64,000 nt of DNA from Escherichia coli (GCF_002854065.1 NZ_CP024147.1); one strand, 5' to 3'; shown: positions 20,456 to 64,000, counted from the first letter of the stretch. Translations and numbers: made by a program. The notes: a model not told the origin generated them from the sequence alone.

Positions 20456-20460
20456 TCTCA

Positions 20461-20490
20461 ATGCCGGGTTTAAGCCCGGCATTATTTTTA
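20461..20490 (+). terminator. Rho-independent terminator after srmB
   Basis: Hairpin ATGCCGGG-TTTAAG-CCCGGCAT followed by a T-rich run; the yfiE stop codon lies in the T-run. Confidence 0.6.
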
Positions 20491-35426: not shown

Positions 35427-35502
35427 TGGCGTCCCCTAGGGGATTCGAACCCCTGTTACCGCCGTGAAAGGGCGGTGTCCTGGGCCTCTAGACGAAGGGG
35501 AC
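35427..35502 (-). tRNA. gltW: tRNA-Glu (spacer tRNA of the rrn operon)
   Basis: 76-nt reverse-complement match to GTCCCCTTCGTCTAGAGGCCCAGGACACCGCCCTTTCACGGCGGTAACAGGGGTTCGAATCCCCTAGGGGACGCCA. Confidence 0.95.
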
Positions 35503-35587
35503 GTATCAGTCTGCTTCGCAAGACGCCTTGCTTTTCACTTTCTATCAGACAATCTGTGTGAGCACTGCAAAGAACGCTTCTTTAAGG

Positions 35588-43516: not shown

Positions 43517-43571
43517 TTGACAGCGTGAAAACAGTACGGGTACTGTACTAAAGTCACTTAAGGAAACAAAC

Positions 43572-43619
43572 ATGAAACACACACCGTTTTTCTTCGCATT
43601 CTTTTTTACCTTCCCCTGA
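43572..43619 (+). CDS. pheL: pheA leader peptide (Phe-rich attenuation peptide)
   Basis: ATG AAA CAC ACA CCG TTT TTC TTC GCA TTC TTT TTT ACC TTC CCC TGA = MKHTPFFFAFFFTFP*, 7 Phe in 15 codons. Confidence 0.85.
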   Translation: MKHTPFFFAFFFTFP

Positions 43620-43665
43620 ATGGGAGGCGTTTCGTCGTGTGAAACAGAATGCGAAGACGAACAAT

Positions 43666-43698
43666 AAGGCCTCCCAAATCGGGGGGCCTTTTTTATTG
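43666..43698 (+). terminator. pheA attenuator terminator
   Basis: AAGGCCTCCC-AAATC-GGGGGGCCTT hairpin followed by T-run, 20 nt upstream of the pheA start. Confidence 0.8.
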
Positions 43699-47332: not shown

Positions 47333-47698
47333 ATGATGAAAAAGTTTATCGCCCCCTTGTTGGCTTTACTGGTTAGCGGATGCCAGATTGATCCTTATAC
47401 TCACGCGCCAACCTTGACCAGCACCGACTGGTATGATGTTGGTATGGAAGATGCGATATCGGGCAGCGCCATAAAAGATGACGATGCATTTAGCGATTCA
47501 CAGGCGGATCGCGGTCTATACCTTAAAGGATATGCCGAAGGACAAAAGAAAACTTGCCAGACCGATTTTACTTATGCCCGAGGACTTTCCGGTAAAAGCT
47601 TTCCTGCCAGCTGCAACAATGTTGAAAATGCCAGCCAACTGCATGAAGTATGGCAAAAAGGGGCTGATGAAAATGCCAGCACAATACGATTAAATTAA
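47333..47698 (+). CDS. yfiL: Lipoprotein YfiL
   Basis: ORF 47294..47698 trimmed to MMKKFIAPLLALLVSGCQ... (lipobox), 121 aa. Confidence 0.8.
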   Translation: MMKKFIAPLLALLVSGCQIDPYTHAPTLTSTDWYDVGMEDAISGSAIKDDDAFSDSQADRGLYLKGYAEGQKKTCQTDFTYARGLSGKSFPASCNNVENASQLHEVWQKGADENASTIRLN

Positions 47699-47847
47699 TT
47701 AAAATCCCACAAATAAATTAAACATAAGATTTTACTCATTATGTTTTATTTCTCACAATGATGACGACCGCATGAAATAATGATATTTTAATGAGCATTC
47801 TGAAAAAATATCGATGCATTTCGAGCGAAGATGGTGGGGATCCCTGA

Positions 47848-48366
47848 ATGCGTTTTTCTCACCGACTGTTCTTACTTCTGATTCTCCTGCTGACGGGAGC
47901 ACCAATACTCGCTCAGGAGCCTTCTGACGTTGCGAAAAACGTGCGTATGATGGTTTCCGGTATTGTCAGTTACACCCGCTGGCCTGCGCTATCAGGGCCA
48001 CCAAAGTTATGTATCTTTTCATCTTCACGTTTTAGTACCGCCCTACAAGAGAATGCCGCGACATCTTTGCCTTATCTGCCTGTCATCATTCACACTCAAC
48101 AAGAGGCGATGATTTCAGGCTGCAATGGTTTTTATTTTGGCAACGAGTCACCGACATTCCAGATGGAATTAACCGAACAATATCCGTCAAAGGCGTTATT
48201 ATTAATTGCCGAACAAAATACCGAGTGCATTATTGGTAGCGCCTTTTGTCTGATCATCCACAATAATGACGTCAGATTTGCCGTAAACCTGGATGCCTTA
48301 TCGCGTAGCGGTGTAAAGGTCAACCCGGATGTCTTGATGCTCGCACGGAAGAAAAATGATGGATAA
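47848..48366 (+). CDS. yfiR: Periplasmic repressor of DgcN (YfiR)
   Basis: 172-aa ORF with signal peptide [25 protein letters not shown]. Confidence 0.9.
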
Positions 48367-49582
48367 CGATAATTCTCTTAATAAGCGCCCCACGTTTAAA
48401 AGAGCATTACGCAACATCAGTATGACCAGCATATTTATCACTATGATGCTGATCTGGTTGCTGCTTTCCGTGACCTCGGTGCTGACCCTGAAACAGTACG
48501 CGCAAAAAAACCTGGCACTGACAGCAGCAACAATGACTTACAGTCTGGAAGCAGCTGTCGTTTTTGCCGATGGCCCTGCAGCAACTGAAACACTGGCAGC
48601 GCTGGGCCAGCAAGGGCAATTTTCAACTGCAGAAGTACGTGATAAGCAGCAAAATATTCTGGCATCCTGGCATTACACCCGTAAGGATCCAGGCGATACT
48701 TTCAGCAATTTCATAAGCCACTGGCTCTTCCCTGCCCCCATCATTCAGCCGATTCGTCACAATGGCGAAACCATTGGCGAAGTACGCTTAACCGCTCGCG
48801 ACAGTTCAATCAGCCATTTTATCTGGTTTTCGCTCGCCGTACTGACCGGTTGTATTCTGCTGGCATCAGGAATCGCAATTACCCTCACCCGCCATTTGCA
48901 CAATGGCCTGGTGGAAGCACTGAAAAATATCACCGATGTCGTACATGATGTGCGTTCCAACCGCAATTTTTCCCGACGAGTTTCGGAAGAACGTATCGCT
49001 GAGTTTCACCGCTTCGCTCTCGACTTCAACAGTCTGCTGGATGAAATGGAAGAGTGGCAGCTTCGTTTACAGGCCAAAAATGCGCAGCTTCTGCGTACCG
49101 CGCTACATGACCCATTAACCGGGCTGGCTAACCGCGCAGCGTTTCGTAGCGGCATCAATACGTTGATGAACAATTCCGATGCCCGAAAAACGTCGGCGTT
49201 ACTATTTCTTGATGGCGATAATTTCAAATATATCAATGATACCTGGGGTCATGCGACGGGCGATAGAGTCTTGATTGAAATCGCAAAACGGTTAGCTGAA
49301 TTTGGCGGGCTGCGACATAAAGCATACCGCCTGGGCGGCGATGAATTCGCTATGGTGCTCTATGATGTACAGTCGGAATCTGAAGTGCAGCAGATATGCT
49401 CAGCACTGACACAAATCTTTAATCTCCCGTTTGATCTTCATAATGGCCATCAGACCACCATGACATTAAGCATTGGTTACGCGATGACCATTGAGCACGC
49501 CTCTGCGGAAAAATTACAAGAGCTTGCCGATCACAATATGTATCAGGCCAAACACCAGCGTGCCGAAAAGCTGGTGAGATAA
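48356..49582 (+). CDS. dgcN: Diguanylate cyclase (2 TM, HAMP, GGDEF)
   Basis: 408-aa ORF with RLGGDEF active-site motif; start overlaps yfiR 3' end by 11 nt. Confidence 0.93.
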
Positions 49583-49597
49583 CAAGGATATATCGAT

Positions 49598-50080
49598 ATG
49601 ATAAAGCACCTGGTAGCACCCCTGATTTTCACCTCACTAATACTGACTGGCTGCCAGTCCCCTCAGGGAAAGTTTACTCCTGAGCAAGTCGCCGCTATGC
49701 AATCTTATGGATTTACTGAATCCGCCGGCGACTGGTCGCTGGGCTTATCAGATGCCATTCTGTTCGCAAAAAATGACTACAAATTGCTCCCGGAAAGCCA
49801 GCAACAGATCCAAACCATGGCAGCCAAATTGGCCTCGACAGGGCTAACACATGCCCGTATGGATGGACACACCGATAACTATGGTGAAGACAGTTACAAC
49901 GAAGGCTTATCATTGAAACGGGCGAATGTCGTGGCCGATGCATGGGCTATGGGTGGACAAATTCCACGCGGCAATCTCACCACACAGGGTTTAGGAAAAA
50001 AATATCCCATAGCCAGTAACAAGACCGCCCAGGGCCGCGCCGAGAACCGCCGCGTCGCAGTGGTGATTACTACCCCTTAA
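49598..50080 (+). CDS. yfiB: OmpA-family outer-membrane lipoprotein YfiB
   Basis: 160-aa ORF with lipobox LILTGCQ and OmpA-like C-terminal domain. Confidence 0.93.
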   Translation: MIKHLVAPLIFTSLILTGCQSPQGKFTPEQVAAMQSYGFTESAGDWSLGLSDAILFAKNDYKLLPESQQQIQTMAAKLASTGLTHARMDGHTDNYGEDSYNEGLSLKRANVVADAWAMGGQIPRGNLTTQGLGKKYPIASNKTAQGRAENRRVAVVITTP

Positions 50081-50156
50081 AACACGAGCAAACAGATAAA
50101 AAAAGGGCCAGCCAATTGGCCAGCCCTTCTTAACAGGATGTCGCTTAAGCGAAATC

Positions 50157-52237: not shown

Positions 52238-52295
52238 TTACTGATTTCTGGAGAAAATGCAATCAGCAGTTAATAACTCTGTCGCATAAGGTCAT

Positions 52296-53657
52296 TTAGC
52301 GACCAGGAAATCCCGGCGGCATCATCCCCTTCATGCTTCTCATCATCTTCGCCATTCCGCCCTTCTTCATTTTCTTCATCATGCGCTGCATGTCGTCGAA
52401 CTGTTTCAGAAGACGGTTAACGTCCTGCACCTGCATACCGCAACCGGCAGCAATACGGCGTTTACGCGAACCTTTGATGATTTCTGGCTTAGCGCGCTCT
52501 TTCATCGTCATCGAGTTGATGATGGCTTCCATACGCACCAGCACTTTATCGTCCATCTGTGACTTGACGTTATCCGGGATCTGCCCCATGCCCGGCAGTT
52601 TGCCCATCAGGCTGGCCATGCCGCCCATATTTTTCATCTGGCGCAGTTGCTCAAGGAAGTCGTTGAGATCGAAGCCGTCACCTTTTTTCAGCTTGCTGGC
52701 TAATTTCTCTGCCTGCGCGCGGTCAACTTTGCTTTCGATATCTTCGATCAGCGACAGTACGTCGCCCATGCCGAGAATACGCGACGCGATGCGGTCCGGA
52801 TGGAACGGCTCCAGCGCCTCAGTTTTCTCGCCAACACCGAGGAACTTGATCGGTTTGCCAGTGATGTGACGAATAGAGAGCGCCGCACCGCCGCGGGCAT
52901 CGCCGTCCACTTTGGTCAACACTACGCCGGTAAGCGGTAACGCTTCATTGAATGCTTTTGCCGTATTGGCCGCATCCTGACCGGTCATGGCGTCAACCAC
53001 AAACAGGGTTTCAACCGGGTTAATCGACGCATGGACTTGTTTGATCTCGTCCATCATCGCTTCGTCAACGTGCAGACGACCAGCGGTATCCACCAGCAGC
53101 ACGTCGTAGAATTTCAGTTTGGCTTCTTTCAGCGCCGCGTTAACGATATCTACCGGCTTCTGACCAACATCAGAAGGGAAGAAATCAACGCCCACCTGCT
53201 CAGCCAGCGTCTCAAGCTGTTTGATTGCCGCCGGGCGATAGACGTCGGCAGAAACCACCAGCACTTTCTTCTTGTGCTTCTCGCGCAGGAACTTACCGAG
53301 TTTACCAACGCTGGTTGTTTTACCGGCACCTTGCAGGCCCGCCATCAGTACGACCGCAGGCGGTTGCGCAGCCAGGTTCAGGGTCTGGTTCTCTTCGCCC
53401 ATCGCCGCAACCAGTTCGTTACGGACGATTTTGACGAACTCCTGCCCCGGCGTCAGGCTCTTATTAACTTCATGACCAACCGCTTTCTCTTTTACGCGAT
53501 TGATAAACTCACGCACTACCGGCAGAGCGACGTCCGCCTCCAGCAGCGCCATGCGCACTTCGCGCAGCGTATCTTTTACGTTGTCTTCAGTGAGGCGTCC
53601 ACGGCCACTGATATTGCGCAGCGTGCGCGACAAACGATCGGTTAAATTATCAAACAT
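52296..53657 (-). CDS. ffh: Signal recognition particle protein Ffh
   Basis: 453-aa ORF with NG domain GTPase motifs and Met-rich M domain. Confidence 0.97.
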   Translation of the reverse strand: MFDNLTDRLSRTLRNISGRGRLTEDNVKDTLREVRMALLEADVALPVVREFINRVKEKAVGHEVNKSLTPGQEFVKIVRNELVAAMGEENQTLNLAAQPPAVVLMAGLQGAGKTTSVGKLGKFLREKHKKKVLVVSADVYRPAAIKQLETLAEQVGVDFFPSDVGQKPVDIVNAALKEAKLKFYDVLLVDTAGRLHVDEAMMDEIKQVHASINPVETLFVVDAMTGQDAANTAKAFNEALPLTGVVLTKVDGDARGGAALSIRHITGKPIKFLGVGEKTEALEPFHPDRIASRILGMGDVLSLIEDIESKVDRAQAEKLASKLKKGDGFDLNDFLEQLRQMKNMGGMASLMGKLPGMGQIPDNVKSQMDDKVLVRMEAIINSMTMKERAKPEIIKGSRKRRIAAGCGMQVQDVNRLLKQFDDMQRMMKKMKKGGMAKMMRSMKGMMPPGFPGR

Positions 53658-61454: not shown

Positions 61455-61817
61455 GGGGCTGATTCTGGATTCGACGGGATTTGCGAAACCCAAGGTGCAT
61501 GCCGAGGGGCGGTTGGCCTCGTAAAAAGCCGCAAAAAATAGTCGCAAACGACGAAAACTACGCTTTAGCAGCTTAATAACCTGCTTAGAGCCCTCTCTCC
61601 CTAGCCTCCGCTCTTAGGACGGGGATCAAGAGAGGTCAAACCCAAAAGAGATCGCGTGGAAGCCCTGCCTGGGGTTGAAGCGTTAAAACTTAATCAGGCT
61701 AGTTTGTTAGTGGCGTGTCCGTCCGCAGCTGGCAAGCGAATGTAAAGACTGACTAAGCATGTAGTACCGAGGATGTAGGAATTTCGGACGCGGGTTCAAC
61801 TCCCGCCAGCTCCACCA
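61455..61817 (+). ncRNA. ssrA: tmRNA (SsrA), 363 nt
   Basis: Starts GGGGCTGATTCTGGATTCGACGGG, contains tag reading frame GCAAACGACGAAAACTACGCTTTAGCAGCTTAA (ANDENYALAA*), ends with tRNA-like ...GGTTCAACTCCCGCCAGCTCCACCA. Confidence 0.97.
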
Positions 61818-61897: not shown

Positions 61898-62020
61898 TGC
61901 CCTGAATTTGTCCCGCGAAGTCCGAAGAGAACTAATTAAATCCGAACCTTTTAGGCCCATTGATAGGCCCAACGAAAAGCTCTATTGTTTTCGTTGGGCC
62001 TAAACGCATGGAGACTCCCC

Positions 62021-63262
62021 ATGGCAAGAAAAACCAAGCCGTTAACCGATACGGAAATCAAAGCCGCCAAACCTAAAGATGCCGATTACCAGCTGTATGA
62101 TGGTGACGGGCTTACTCTGCTAATCAAGTCCAGCGGTAGTAAGCTCTGGCAGTTCCGTTACTATCGACCTCTGACCAAGCAGCGAACCAAGCAGAGCTTC
62201 GGAGCCTATCCAGCCGTCTCCCTTTCTGATGCGCGTAAACTCAGAGCTGAATCTCGAGCTTTGTTGGCGAAAGACATTGATCCTCAGGAACATCAGAAAG
62301 AACAGGTGAGAAATTCTCAAGAGGCCAAAACCAACACTTTCCGGTTAGTTGCCGAGCGTTGGTGGAATGTGAAGAAAGCCAGCGTAACAGAGGACTATGC
62401 CGACGATATCTGGCGCTCGCTTGAGAGGGATGTTCTCCCGGCAATCGGTGATATCAGTGTCACTGAGATTAAGGCTCATACTTTGGTTAAAGCAGTTCAT
62501 CCGGTTCAGGCCAGAGGTGCATTAGAGACAGTCCGCCGCCTTTGTCAGCGTATTAACGAAGTCATGATTTATGCGCAGAACACAGGCCTGATTGATGCGG
62601 TTCCCAGCGTAAACATCGGGAAAGCATTCGAGAAACCGCAAAAGAAAAACATGCCAAGCATCCACCCAGGTCAACTTCCACAGCTAATGCAGACTATGCG
62701 TACGGCAAGTATCAGCCTGTCCACACGATGCCTGTTCATGTGGCAGCTTCTCACCATCACCCGCCCTGCCGAAGCTGCTGAGGCTCGATGGGATGAGATC
62801 GATTTCGATGCTAGCGAATGGAAAATTCCAGCTGCTCGAATGAAGATGAATCGGGAGCATACGGTTCCATTATCTGATGGAGCTCTCGCTATTCTGGAAA
62901 TAATGAAGTCTCTCAGCGGTGGTCGAGAATTTATCTTTCCCAGTCGCATTAAGCCTACCCAGCCGATGAACAGCCAGACAGTAAATGCAGCCCTTAAGCG
63001 TGCTGGTTTAGGAGGCGTACTCGTTTCACACGGCTTACGTTCTATTGCCAGTACGGCACTCAATGAGGAAGGATTTCCGCCTGATGTTATTGAGGCTGCA
63101 CTTGCTCATGTAGATAAGAATGAGGTACGTCGCGCTTACAATCGAAGTGACTATCTTGAGCAACGACGACCGATGATGCAGTGGTGGGCTGATTTTGTTA
63201 AAGCAGCAGATAGCGGCAGTATCGTGAATAGTGGGGTTAGGGGAATACGTCTTGTAGGATGA
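62021..63262 (+). CDS. intA: P4-type tyrosine integrase (prophage integrase at ssrA)
   Basis: ORF 61985..63262 (TTG start) trimmed to the ATG at 62021 (MARKTKPLTDTEIKAAKPKDADYQLYDGDGLTLLIKSSGSKLWQFRYY...), 413 aa; C-terminal catalytic region with HGLRSIAST...LAH...Y. Position directly downstream of ssrA is typical of CP4-57-like islands. Confidence 0.9.
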   Translation: MARKTKPLTDTEIKAAKPKDADYQLYDGDGLTLLIKSSGSKLWQFRYYRPLTKQRTKQSFGAYPAVSLSDARKLRAESRALLAKDIDPQEHQKEQVRNSQEAKTNTFRLVAERWWNVKKASVTEDYADDIWRSLERDVLPAIGDISVTEIKAHTLVKAVHPVQARGALETVRRLCQRINEVMIYAQNTGLIDAVPSVNIGKAFEKPQKKNMPSIHPGQLPQLMQTMRTASISLSTRCLFMWQLLTITRPAEAAEARWDEIDFDASEWKIPAARMKMNREHTVPLSDGALAILEIMKSLSGGREFIFPSRIKPTQPMNSQTVNAALKRAGLGGVLVSHGLRSIASTALNEEGFPPDVIEAALAHVDKNEVRRAYNRSDYLEQRRPMMQWWADFVKAADSGSIVNSGVRGIRLVG

Positions 63263-63536
63263 ATCCTTTATCAGCACCCATTATGGGTGCTGATAACTCA
63301 CCTATAGGTAATACGGAATTTTACCCTTTGGTTTTCTTTTTTCTAGTAACCGTATTATCGAAAGCCAATTTGATACTCTCAATATTTCTTGACCAGTTTT
63401 TTATAATGGTATCTGCCAATGCATCAGGGCTCATTGTTGATATCCGATATTTTTTACTTTGATTATTAATTTCAAAATTTGGGTGATGCTGCCAACTTAC
63501 TGATTTAGTGTATGATGGTGTTTTTGAGGTGCTCCA

Positions 63537-63812
63537 GTGGCTTCTGTTTCTATCAGCTGTCCCTCCTGTTCAGCTACTGACGGGGTGGTGCGTAACGGCA
63601 AAAGCACTGCCGGACATCAGCGCTATCTCTGCTCTCACTGCCGTAAAACATGGCAACTGCAGTTCACTTACACCGCTTCTCAACCCGGTACGCACCAGAA
63701 AATCATTGATATGGCCATGAATGGCGTTGGATGCCGGGCAACCGCCCGCATTATGGGCGTTGGCCTCAACACGATTTTCCGCCATTTAAAAAACTCAGGC
63801 CGCAGTCGGTAA
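63537..63812 (+). CDS. insA: IS1 transposition regulator InsA
   Basis: 91-aa [46 protein letters not shown]... (zinc-finger + HTH); A6C slippery run TTAAAAAACTC near its 3' end. Confidence 0.93.
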
Positions 63813-64000
63813 CCTCGCGCATACAGCCGGGCAGTGACGTCATCGTCTGCGCGGAAATGGACGAACAGTGGGGATACGTCGGGGCTAAATCGCGCCAGCG
63901 CTGGCTGTTTTACGCGTATGACAGGCTCCGGAAGACGGTTGTTGCGCACGTATTCGGTGAACGCACTATGGCGACGCTGGGGCGTCTTATGAGCCTGCTG
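63731..64000 (+). CDS. insB: IS1 transposase InsB (partial, 5' part; -1 frame relative to insA)
   Basis: From ATG at 63731: [90 protein letters not shown]... open to window end. Confidence 0.8.

Follow-up and report, generated by a model that had tools for sequence, protein, structure and literature searches.

The window analyzed here, a 64,000-nt stretch of E. coli DNA taken as a whole, was identified as a chromosomal segment collinear with positions 2,693,778-2,757,363 of strain K-12 MG1655 (~98 to 98.7% identity). Within it, three genes lie co-linearly on the + strand in the order yfiR-yfiN-yfiB, with pheA, tyrA, aroF, and yfiL as upstream neighbors and rplS, trmD, rimM, and rpsP downstream, as in K-12. 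The genes, drawn from a six-frame ORF list, and the noncoding features around them are as follows.

47699-47847, + strand: yfiL-yfiR intergenic region, 149 nt, AT-rich
47752-47781, + strand: promoter-like match, CTCACA-18 nt-AATAAT, from a consensus scan only
47848-48366, + strand: yfiR, ORF of 172 aa
48356-48366, + strand: overlap of yfiR and dgcN, 11 nt, ATGATGGATAA, read from the sequence
48356-49582, + strand: dgcN (yfiN), ORF of 408 aa
49598-50080, + strand: yfiB, ORF of 160 aa
50100-50131, between the convergent yfiB and rplS: GC-rich hairpin with a 14-bp stem, from a terminator scan

An earlier note on this DNA had proposed these ORF coordinates, gene identities, and gene order, of which the coordinates matched the ORF list exactly and the identities and order agreed with both Pfam and NCBIfam; the 11-nt overlap that it described was likewise read directly at 48356-48366. 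The dgcN start codon (ATG at 48356) sits within the last codons of yfiR, and the overlap is unchanged in K-12. Shine-Dalgarno-like purine runs were recognized by eye before each of the three starts: GGTGGGGA in the yfiL-yfiR intergenic region preceding the yfiR ATG, GGAAG just 5' of the dgcN start and within yfiR, and AAGGA before yfiB. Such an overlapping arrangement is typical of translational coupling, and repressor and cyclase are probably translated in a coupled manner. The spacer between dgcN and yfiB is 15 nt long and identical to that of K-12, and the terminator scan revealed no terminator-like site on the + strand within the operon. The shared strand, co-linearity, and gene order are those expected of a single predicted transcription unit. 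Downstream, the hairpin at 50100-50131 leads into a T-run when read on the - strand and was scored as an intrinsic terminator for rplS (-); its tail on the + strand is T-poor (TTCTTAAC), and the hairpin probably also ends the yfiRNB transcript. No structured RNA was found in or beside the operon when positions 41500-64000 were searched with Rfam at the gathering threshold. Across that same interval, the Phe leader and tmRNA were the only Rfam matches.

The product of the first gene matched both Pfam PF13689 (DUF4154/YfiR; 4.9e-31, 108.2 bits against a cut-off of 24.9) and the NCBIfam equivalog NF053586, "regulatory sequestration protein YfiR" (168 bits against a cut-off of 85), scores that bear out its earlier designation as the repressor gene of the module. 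It also matched the solved YfiR of P. aeruginosa at 1e-16 (phmmer). Inspection of 24 aa at the N terminus revealed a Sec-type signal peptide with the n/h/c layout, and cysteines 55, 92, 127, and 134 align with P. aeruginosa cysteines 71, 110, 145, and 152, the roles of which have been described (PMC4887326). All 172 residues are identical to those of K-12 YfiR (172/172 aa), the genes differing by one synonymous SNP. From this identity and the literature, we infer that YfiR is a periplasmic repressor of DgcN that would bind and repress the cyclase.

DgcN was likewise identical to its K-12 counterpart (408/408 aa; 10 synonymous SNPs). It matched the NCBIfam equivalog NF007423 (DgcN/YfiN) with 503.9 bits against a cut-off of 325 over residues 11-399 of 408, and its GGDEF domain matched the solved TpbB/YfiN GGDEF domain at 5.5e-29. 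Two Pfam domains were found, GGDEF (1.5e-43) and CHASE8 (1.3e-33); the latter, though strongly detected, had been left out of the domain description in the earlier note. The protein is laid out as follows.

Residues ~21-46: first transmembrane segment, TM1 (hydropathy)
Residues 45-146: periplasmic CHASE8 (PAS-like) domain (Pfam)
Residues ~151-178: second transmembrane segment, TM2 (hydropathy)
Between TM2 and the GGDEF domain: helical linker of ~70 aa, named HAMP in the literature
Residues 249-403: GGDEF domain (Pfam)
Residues 327-331: GGDEF motif, intact

By this architecture, DgcN is a predicted inner-membrane diguanylate cyclase. At the I-site position, five residues upstream of GGDEF, it carries GLRH (318-321), and no RxxD I-site was found anywhere in the 408 aa scanned. 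Both observations agree with the published account of E. coli YfiN as an enzyme that lacks both I-sites and has GLRH in place of RxxD (PMC10127611).

The segment between TM2 and the GGDEF domain proved harder to classify. HAMP (PF00672) gave no Pfam match at E <= 10, whether the query was full-length DgcN or its linker alone (as two fragments), and a sequence search with the linker retrieved no HAMP-containing PDB chain, its matches being chance coiled-coil ones. Taken together, these searches returned nothing beyond chance matches to coiled coils or to Med29. The linker did show a weak local match to positions 172-238 of BaeS in NCBIfam (E 5.8e-4), which we take to be the TM2-HAMP region of that protein. 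Residues 17-232 as a whole strongly matched NF053592, "sensor histidine kinase, YfiR-like protein-associated" (8.2e-23), which shows TM-CHASE8-TM-linker to be a transmitter unit common to kinases. We record the linker as HAMP-like; its HAMP label is one given in the literature (PMC3375315, PMC10127611) and was not reproduced by sequence profiles. With HAMP undetected by the Pfam and PDB sequence searches, the route by which a signal would cross the membrane drew no support from the profile tests applied here. The earlier description of a "HAMP-GGDEF diguanylate cyclase" therefore stood for its GGDEF half, the motif being intact, but not for its HAMP half, which neither search reproduced.

YfiB matched Pfam OmpA (2.6e-17), NCBIfam NF053585 (229.9 bits against 128) and NF007424 (345.9 bits against 155), and the solved P. 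aeruginosa YfiB (1.5e-31). Lipoboxes follow the rule [LVI][ASTVI][GAS]C, and in YfiB inspection revealed L-T-G-C19, followed by Gln20 at position +2 and so without an inner-membrane retention signal. YfiB is, on these grounds, a predicted outer-membrane lipoprotein with an OmpA/Pal-like peptidoglycan-binding domain, and its earlier listing as an OmpA-like lipoprotein gene was upheld by the family matches and the lipobox alike. In P. aeruginosa, activating YfiB substitutions cluster at residues 35-55 (E. coli ~26-46), at Q39, L43, F48, and W55, and the peptidoglycan site comprises N67/N68, D102, G105, and R117 (PMC3375315, PMC4887326). The activation residues Q39, L43, F48, and W55 correspond to Q30, M34, F39, and W46 of the protein studied here, which match both K-12 and the consensus of the orthologues, and the peptidoglycan-site residues N68, D102, G105, and R117 correspond to N59, D93, G96, and R108. 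Both sets showed little or no variation across 113 aligned representatives of enterobacterial orthologue clusters, and no equivalent of the known activating changes (Q39, L43P, F48S, W55L) was found in YfiB. The residues mutated in Shigella YfiB, namely C19Q20, P22Q23, E29Q30, and S36 (PMC8948675), are unchanged as well.

Taken with the solved P. aeruginosa counterparts, these profile matches place the operon far beyond chance. The operon, already known, is that of K-12 b2603-b2605 and belongs to the YfiBNR family. Every YfiBNR family feature that could be tested was found, with the exception of HAMP detection by sequence profile. Frameshifts and stops were absent from the three genes, all of which equal their K-12 counterparts in length, in keeping with the earlier statement that no disruptive changes were visible. 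The 2,461-nt locus matched 5,425 of the 5,426 complete E. coli genomes searched, in every case at a chromosomal site, and is identical or nearly so to their loci annotated yfiR/dgcN/yfiB, with query coverage of at least 80% in 5,368 of the matching genomes; the match was 100% in two, those of strains 100416 and CUWW06. We are highly confident that what lies here is a wild-type, reference-like copy of the canonical YfiBNR operon of E. coli (yfiR-dgcN-yfiB), a well-known switch of three genes through which envelope stress controls c-di-GMP synthesis, and we predict it to be normally repressed and inducible.

The steps by which such an operon would act are established in P. aeruginosa or in E. 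coli K-12, and we infer them here from sequence identity. YfiR would be exported to the periplasm, fold with two disulfides, and bind the periplasmic CHASE8 (PAS-like) domain of DgcN, holding the cyclase off. Under reducing conditions or upon loss of DsbA, YfiR would misfold and DgcN would be released. Independently, YfiR could be sequestered at the outer membrane by YfiB, a protein anchored by its lipid and its Pal-like peptidoglycan-binding domain and able to extend its N-terminal segment. Derepressed DgcN would then convert GTP to c-di-GMP, with cellulose and biofilm formation raised and motility inhibited. Repression and release by YfiR, and the c-di-GMP output of DgcN, have been described previously (PMC3375315, PMC4887326, PMC4992967). 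Under envelope stress in E. coli, active DgcN moves to mid-cell and division is blocked via FtsZ/ZipA, a relocation for which YfiB is dispensable (PMC4992967); the weight of the YfiB branch is accordingly less certain in E. coli than in Pseudomonas. When the carbon source is gluconeogenic, the cyclase, having no I-sites, can drain the GTP pool and bring growth to a halt (PMC10127611).

The consensus scan returned 7 promoter-like sites against 5.6 +/- 2.6 in shuffled sequence, and none was assigned as a promoter. Relative to K-12, the yfiL-yfiR intergenic region carries 6 SNPs in 149 nt, one of which changes AAAAAT of K-12 to AATAAT in a -10-like hexamer and another of which, C>T at 47705, is private. 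The exact intergenic allele was found in just 2 genomes, strains 100416 and CUWW06, and with one mismatch in 374 further genomes, including O157:H7. Beyond the operon, the yfiB-rplS spacer differs from K-12 by one SNP and by one extra A in an A-run beside the terminator hairpin.

It is possible, though in our judgment less likely than not, that the operon is intact yet effectively silent under ordinary conditions and serves as a stress-triggered checkpoint on division and growth more than as a biofilm switch. Native DgcN expression in K-12 is very low (PMC4992967); DgcN-GFP made from the native promoter escaped detection there, its signal being too weak, and deletion of yfiR alone gave neither relocation of DgcN nor growth arrest (PMC4992967, PMC10127611). 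YfiR and DgcN of the window are protein-identical to those of that strain, and the candidate promoters match the consensus weakly and are no commoner than chance. Against these points, disruption of yfiR in E. coli raises cellulose and biofilm, as cited in PMC4992967, and expression need not equal that of K-12 given 6 upstream differences, one of them improving a -10-like hexamer. A silent operon of this kind would, moreover, differ from the canonical one in emphasis and not in identity.

Relative to K-12, the three genes carry 14 coding SNPs, 12 synonymous and 2 non-synonymous, a ratio that indicates ordinary purifying selection. Both non-synonymous changes fall in yfiB, the three SNPs of which are V10I, S125G, and one synonymous change (158/160 aa identical). 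The residue-level alignment with K-12 that the earlier note had proposed thus recovered identical YfiR and DgcN and a YfiB that differs at V10I and S125G only, and the search for known activating substitutions proposed alongside it revealed that neither change corresponds to one.

V10I lies in the h-region (hydrophobic core) of the lipoprotein signal peptide, and with the lipobox at C19, residue 10 would be removed from mature YfiB. I10 is also the commoner residue in E. coli, with 2,590 exact 61-mers against 1,336 for the V10 of K-12. S125G, encoded by GGC at 49970-49972, is by comparison rare: among 4,590 alignable complete genomes, the exact G125 61-mer was present in at least 5 and the K-12 61-mer in 3,106, the count of 5 being a lower bound since megablast with the 61-mer could not align 836 genomes. 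The carriers are the five best matches to the locus (strains 100416, CUWW06, A30, ET350, and 48), and their sources are human stool, wastewater, baboon, frog, and deer. We considered whether G125 might have been missed in divergent lineages; this was rejected, as codon 125 was AGC (Ser) in all five lineages sampled (96.5 to 99% identity), albeit a small sample.

Residue 125 pairs with A133 of P. aeruginosa YfiB in the HMMER alignment. The published YfiB-YfiR contacts (E45, G47, F48, E53, W55, F57, R96, E98, E157, I163, V165, and P166) and back-to-back dimer contacts (N68-R71, R116, and S120) of that protein are known (PMC4887326), and residue 133 is absent from these lists as well as from those of the activation cluster and the peptidoglycan site (PMC3375315, PMC4887326). 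V10I and S125G were each rejected as a known activating change, the former by its signal-peptide position and the latter because A133 is outside the published functional residues. Across the 113 orthologues, column 125 takes several residues (S 80, T 21, G 4, A 3, N 3), and four orthologue clusters, with Enterobacter cancerogenus and [Enterobacter] lignolyticus among them, naturally carry Gly there in the same PRGNLTT context. Most probably, S125G is neutral and simply marks a lineage.

An adaptive role for S125G would have it, alone or together with upstream SNPs such as the lineage-private one at 47705, shift the c-di-GMP set point in a small lineage, a shift that could proceed through the stability of YfiB, its peptidoglycan binding, or the ease of its activating conformational change. 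The rarity of G125, the Ser kept in the five divergent lineages, the confinement of both non-synonymous changes to yfiB while dgcN has 10 synonymous and none, and the repeated occurrence of adaptive mutations in the Yfi/Aws systems of Pseudomonas (PMC3375315) would all fit such a role, but we consider it very improbable: Ser to Gly is a conservative change at a site that tolerates S, T, G, A, and N and has Ala in P. aeruginosa, the position is outside the activation cluster (PMC3375315) and absent from the contact, peptidoglycan-site, and dimer lists, and the carriers come from unrelated hosts, which fits a marker by descent and not a niche-specific adaptation. With YfiR and DgcN equal to K-12, V10I common, and S125G likely neutral, a normally repressed and inducible system is what would be predicted for this strain.

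Among known systems, the closest is that of K-12 MG1655 itself, where yfiR (b2603), dgcN/yfiN (b2604), and yfiB (b2605) share with the window their chromosomal position, neighbors, gene lengths, overlap, and spacer, the differences being the 14 coding SNPs, the 6 upstream SNPs, and the SNP and extra A of the downstream hairpin region. The P. aeruginosa YfiBNR system (TpbB/PA1120), the mechanism of which has been worked out (PMC3375315, PMC4887326) and the solved structures of which include 4zhv, 4yn7, 4iob, and 7a7e, has the same three components, the same YfiB activation cluster and Pal-like site, the same four YfiR cysteines, and the same GGDEF active site. Its proteins are nonetheless only distantly similar (phmmer 1e-16 to 1e-31); in the alignment, the linker that follows the lipidated Cys has two residues fewer in E. 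coli YfiB, and E. coli DgcN has additional roles in cell division and GTP depletion (PMC4992967, PMC10127611). Strains 100416 and CUWW06 share the same YfiR, DgcN, and YfiB protein accessions, their YfiB allele being WP_032281455.1, and their flanking DNA is 99.97 to 99.98% identical over 10 to 28 kb. They differ from the window in their surroundings: in strain 100416, yfiL is split by IS1, whereas it is intact in the window, and in CUWW06 the distance between the yfi locus and the intA-IS1 junction exceeds that in the window by ~33 kb.

The earlier note had held that alleles identical to the reference would leave the locus of routine interest only. YfiR and DgcN are identical and YfiB, with its rare G125, is not, and by that measure the locus is still routine. 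Its significance is small: the operon belongs to the E. coli core, has been well studied, and is reference-like in this strain. Our analyses do add a caution, namely that Pfam fails to detect, in DgcN of E. coli, the HAMP domain routinely ascribed to it, and they provide an allele record for the strain, in which YfiR and DgcN equal K-12 and YfiB carries V10I and S125G. The residual novelty is confined to the rare G125 allele of YfiB, which marks a small lineage of E. coli comprising strains 100416, CUWW06, A30, ET350, and 48.

Upstream of yfiR in the window, three features stand out:

43571-43696, Phe leader (pheL attenuator; Rfam, 132 bits), upstream of pheA
47333-47698, yfiL, a lipoprotein gene (DUF2799), upstream of yfiR
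47752-47781, promoter-like site, upstream of yfiR

The Phe leader 5' of pheA is expected for this region. The yfiL gene of the window is intact, differing from its K-12 counterpart by two synonymous SNPs, whereas in strain 100416, the nearest relative, an IS1 insertion splits the gene (13857-14999 of L011, the stretch of that strain's DNA around yfiL). The window therefore derives from a close relative of strains 100416 and CUWW06, yet its source is identical with neither. Between yfiL and yfiR, the -10-like hexamer reads AATAAT in the window and in O157:H7 but AAAAAT in K-12, a change in a candidate yfiR promoter that could alter expression; promoter-like sites near yfiR were no more frequent than in shuffled sequence.

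Other differences from K-12 lie elsewhere in the window. Three short segments occur in K-12 only: one of about 150 bp between the srmB and yfiE genes (window site ~20460-20484), one of about 85 bp between gltW and rrsG (~35502-35523), and one of about 110 bp in the rpsP/ffh gap (~52281-52296). They may represent REP-type or spacer indels. Similarity to K-12 ends at position 63225. The features at this end of the window are:

61455-61817, tmRNA (ssrA)
61985-63262, CP4-57-type integrase ORF, 3' of ssrA
63481-64000, IS1, 100% identical to an IS1B copy of strain 100416

At least 80% of the junction past ssrA was present in only 38 of the 5,426 complete E. coli genomes compared; the island at ssrA is therefore not the same as K-12 CP4-57 and appears to have been truncated or remodelled by IS1.

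The DgcN linker, named HAMP in the literature, did not match the Pfam HAMP model. Residues 17-232 of DgcN (window 48404-49051), spanning TM-CHASE8-TM-linker, matched NCBIfam NF053592 (8.2e-23), titled “sensor histidine kinase, YfiR-like protein-associated.” The YfiR-controlled sensor module is thus common to cyclases and kinases.
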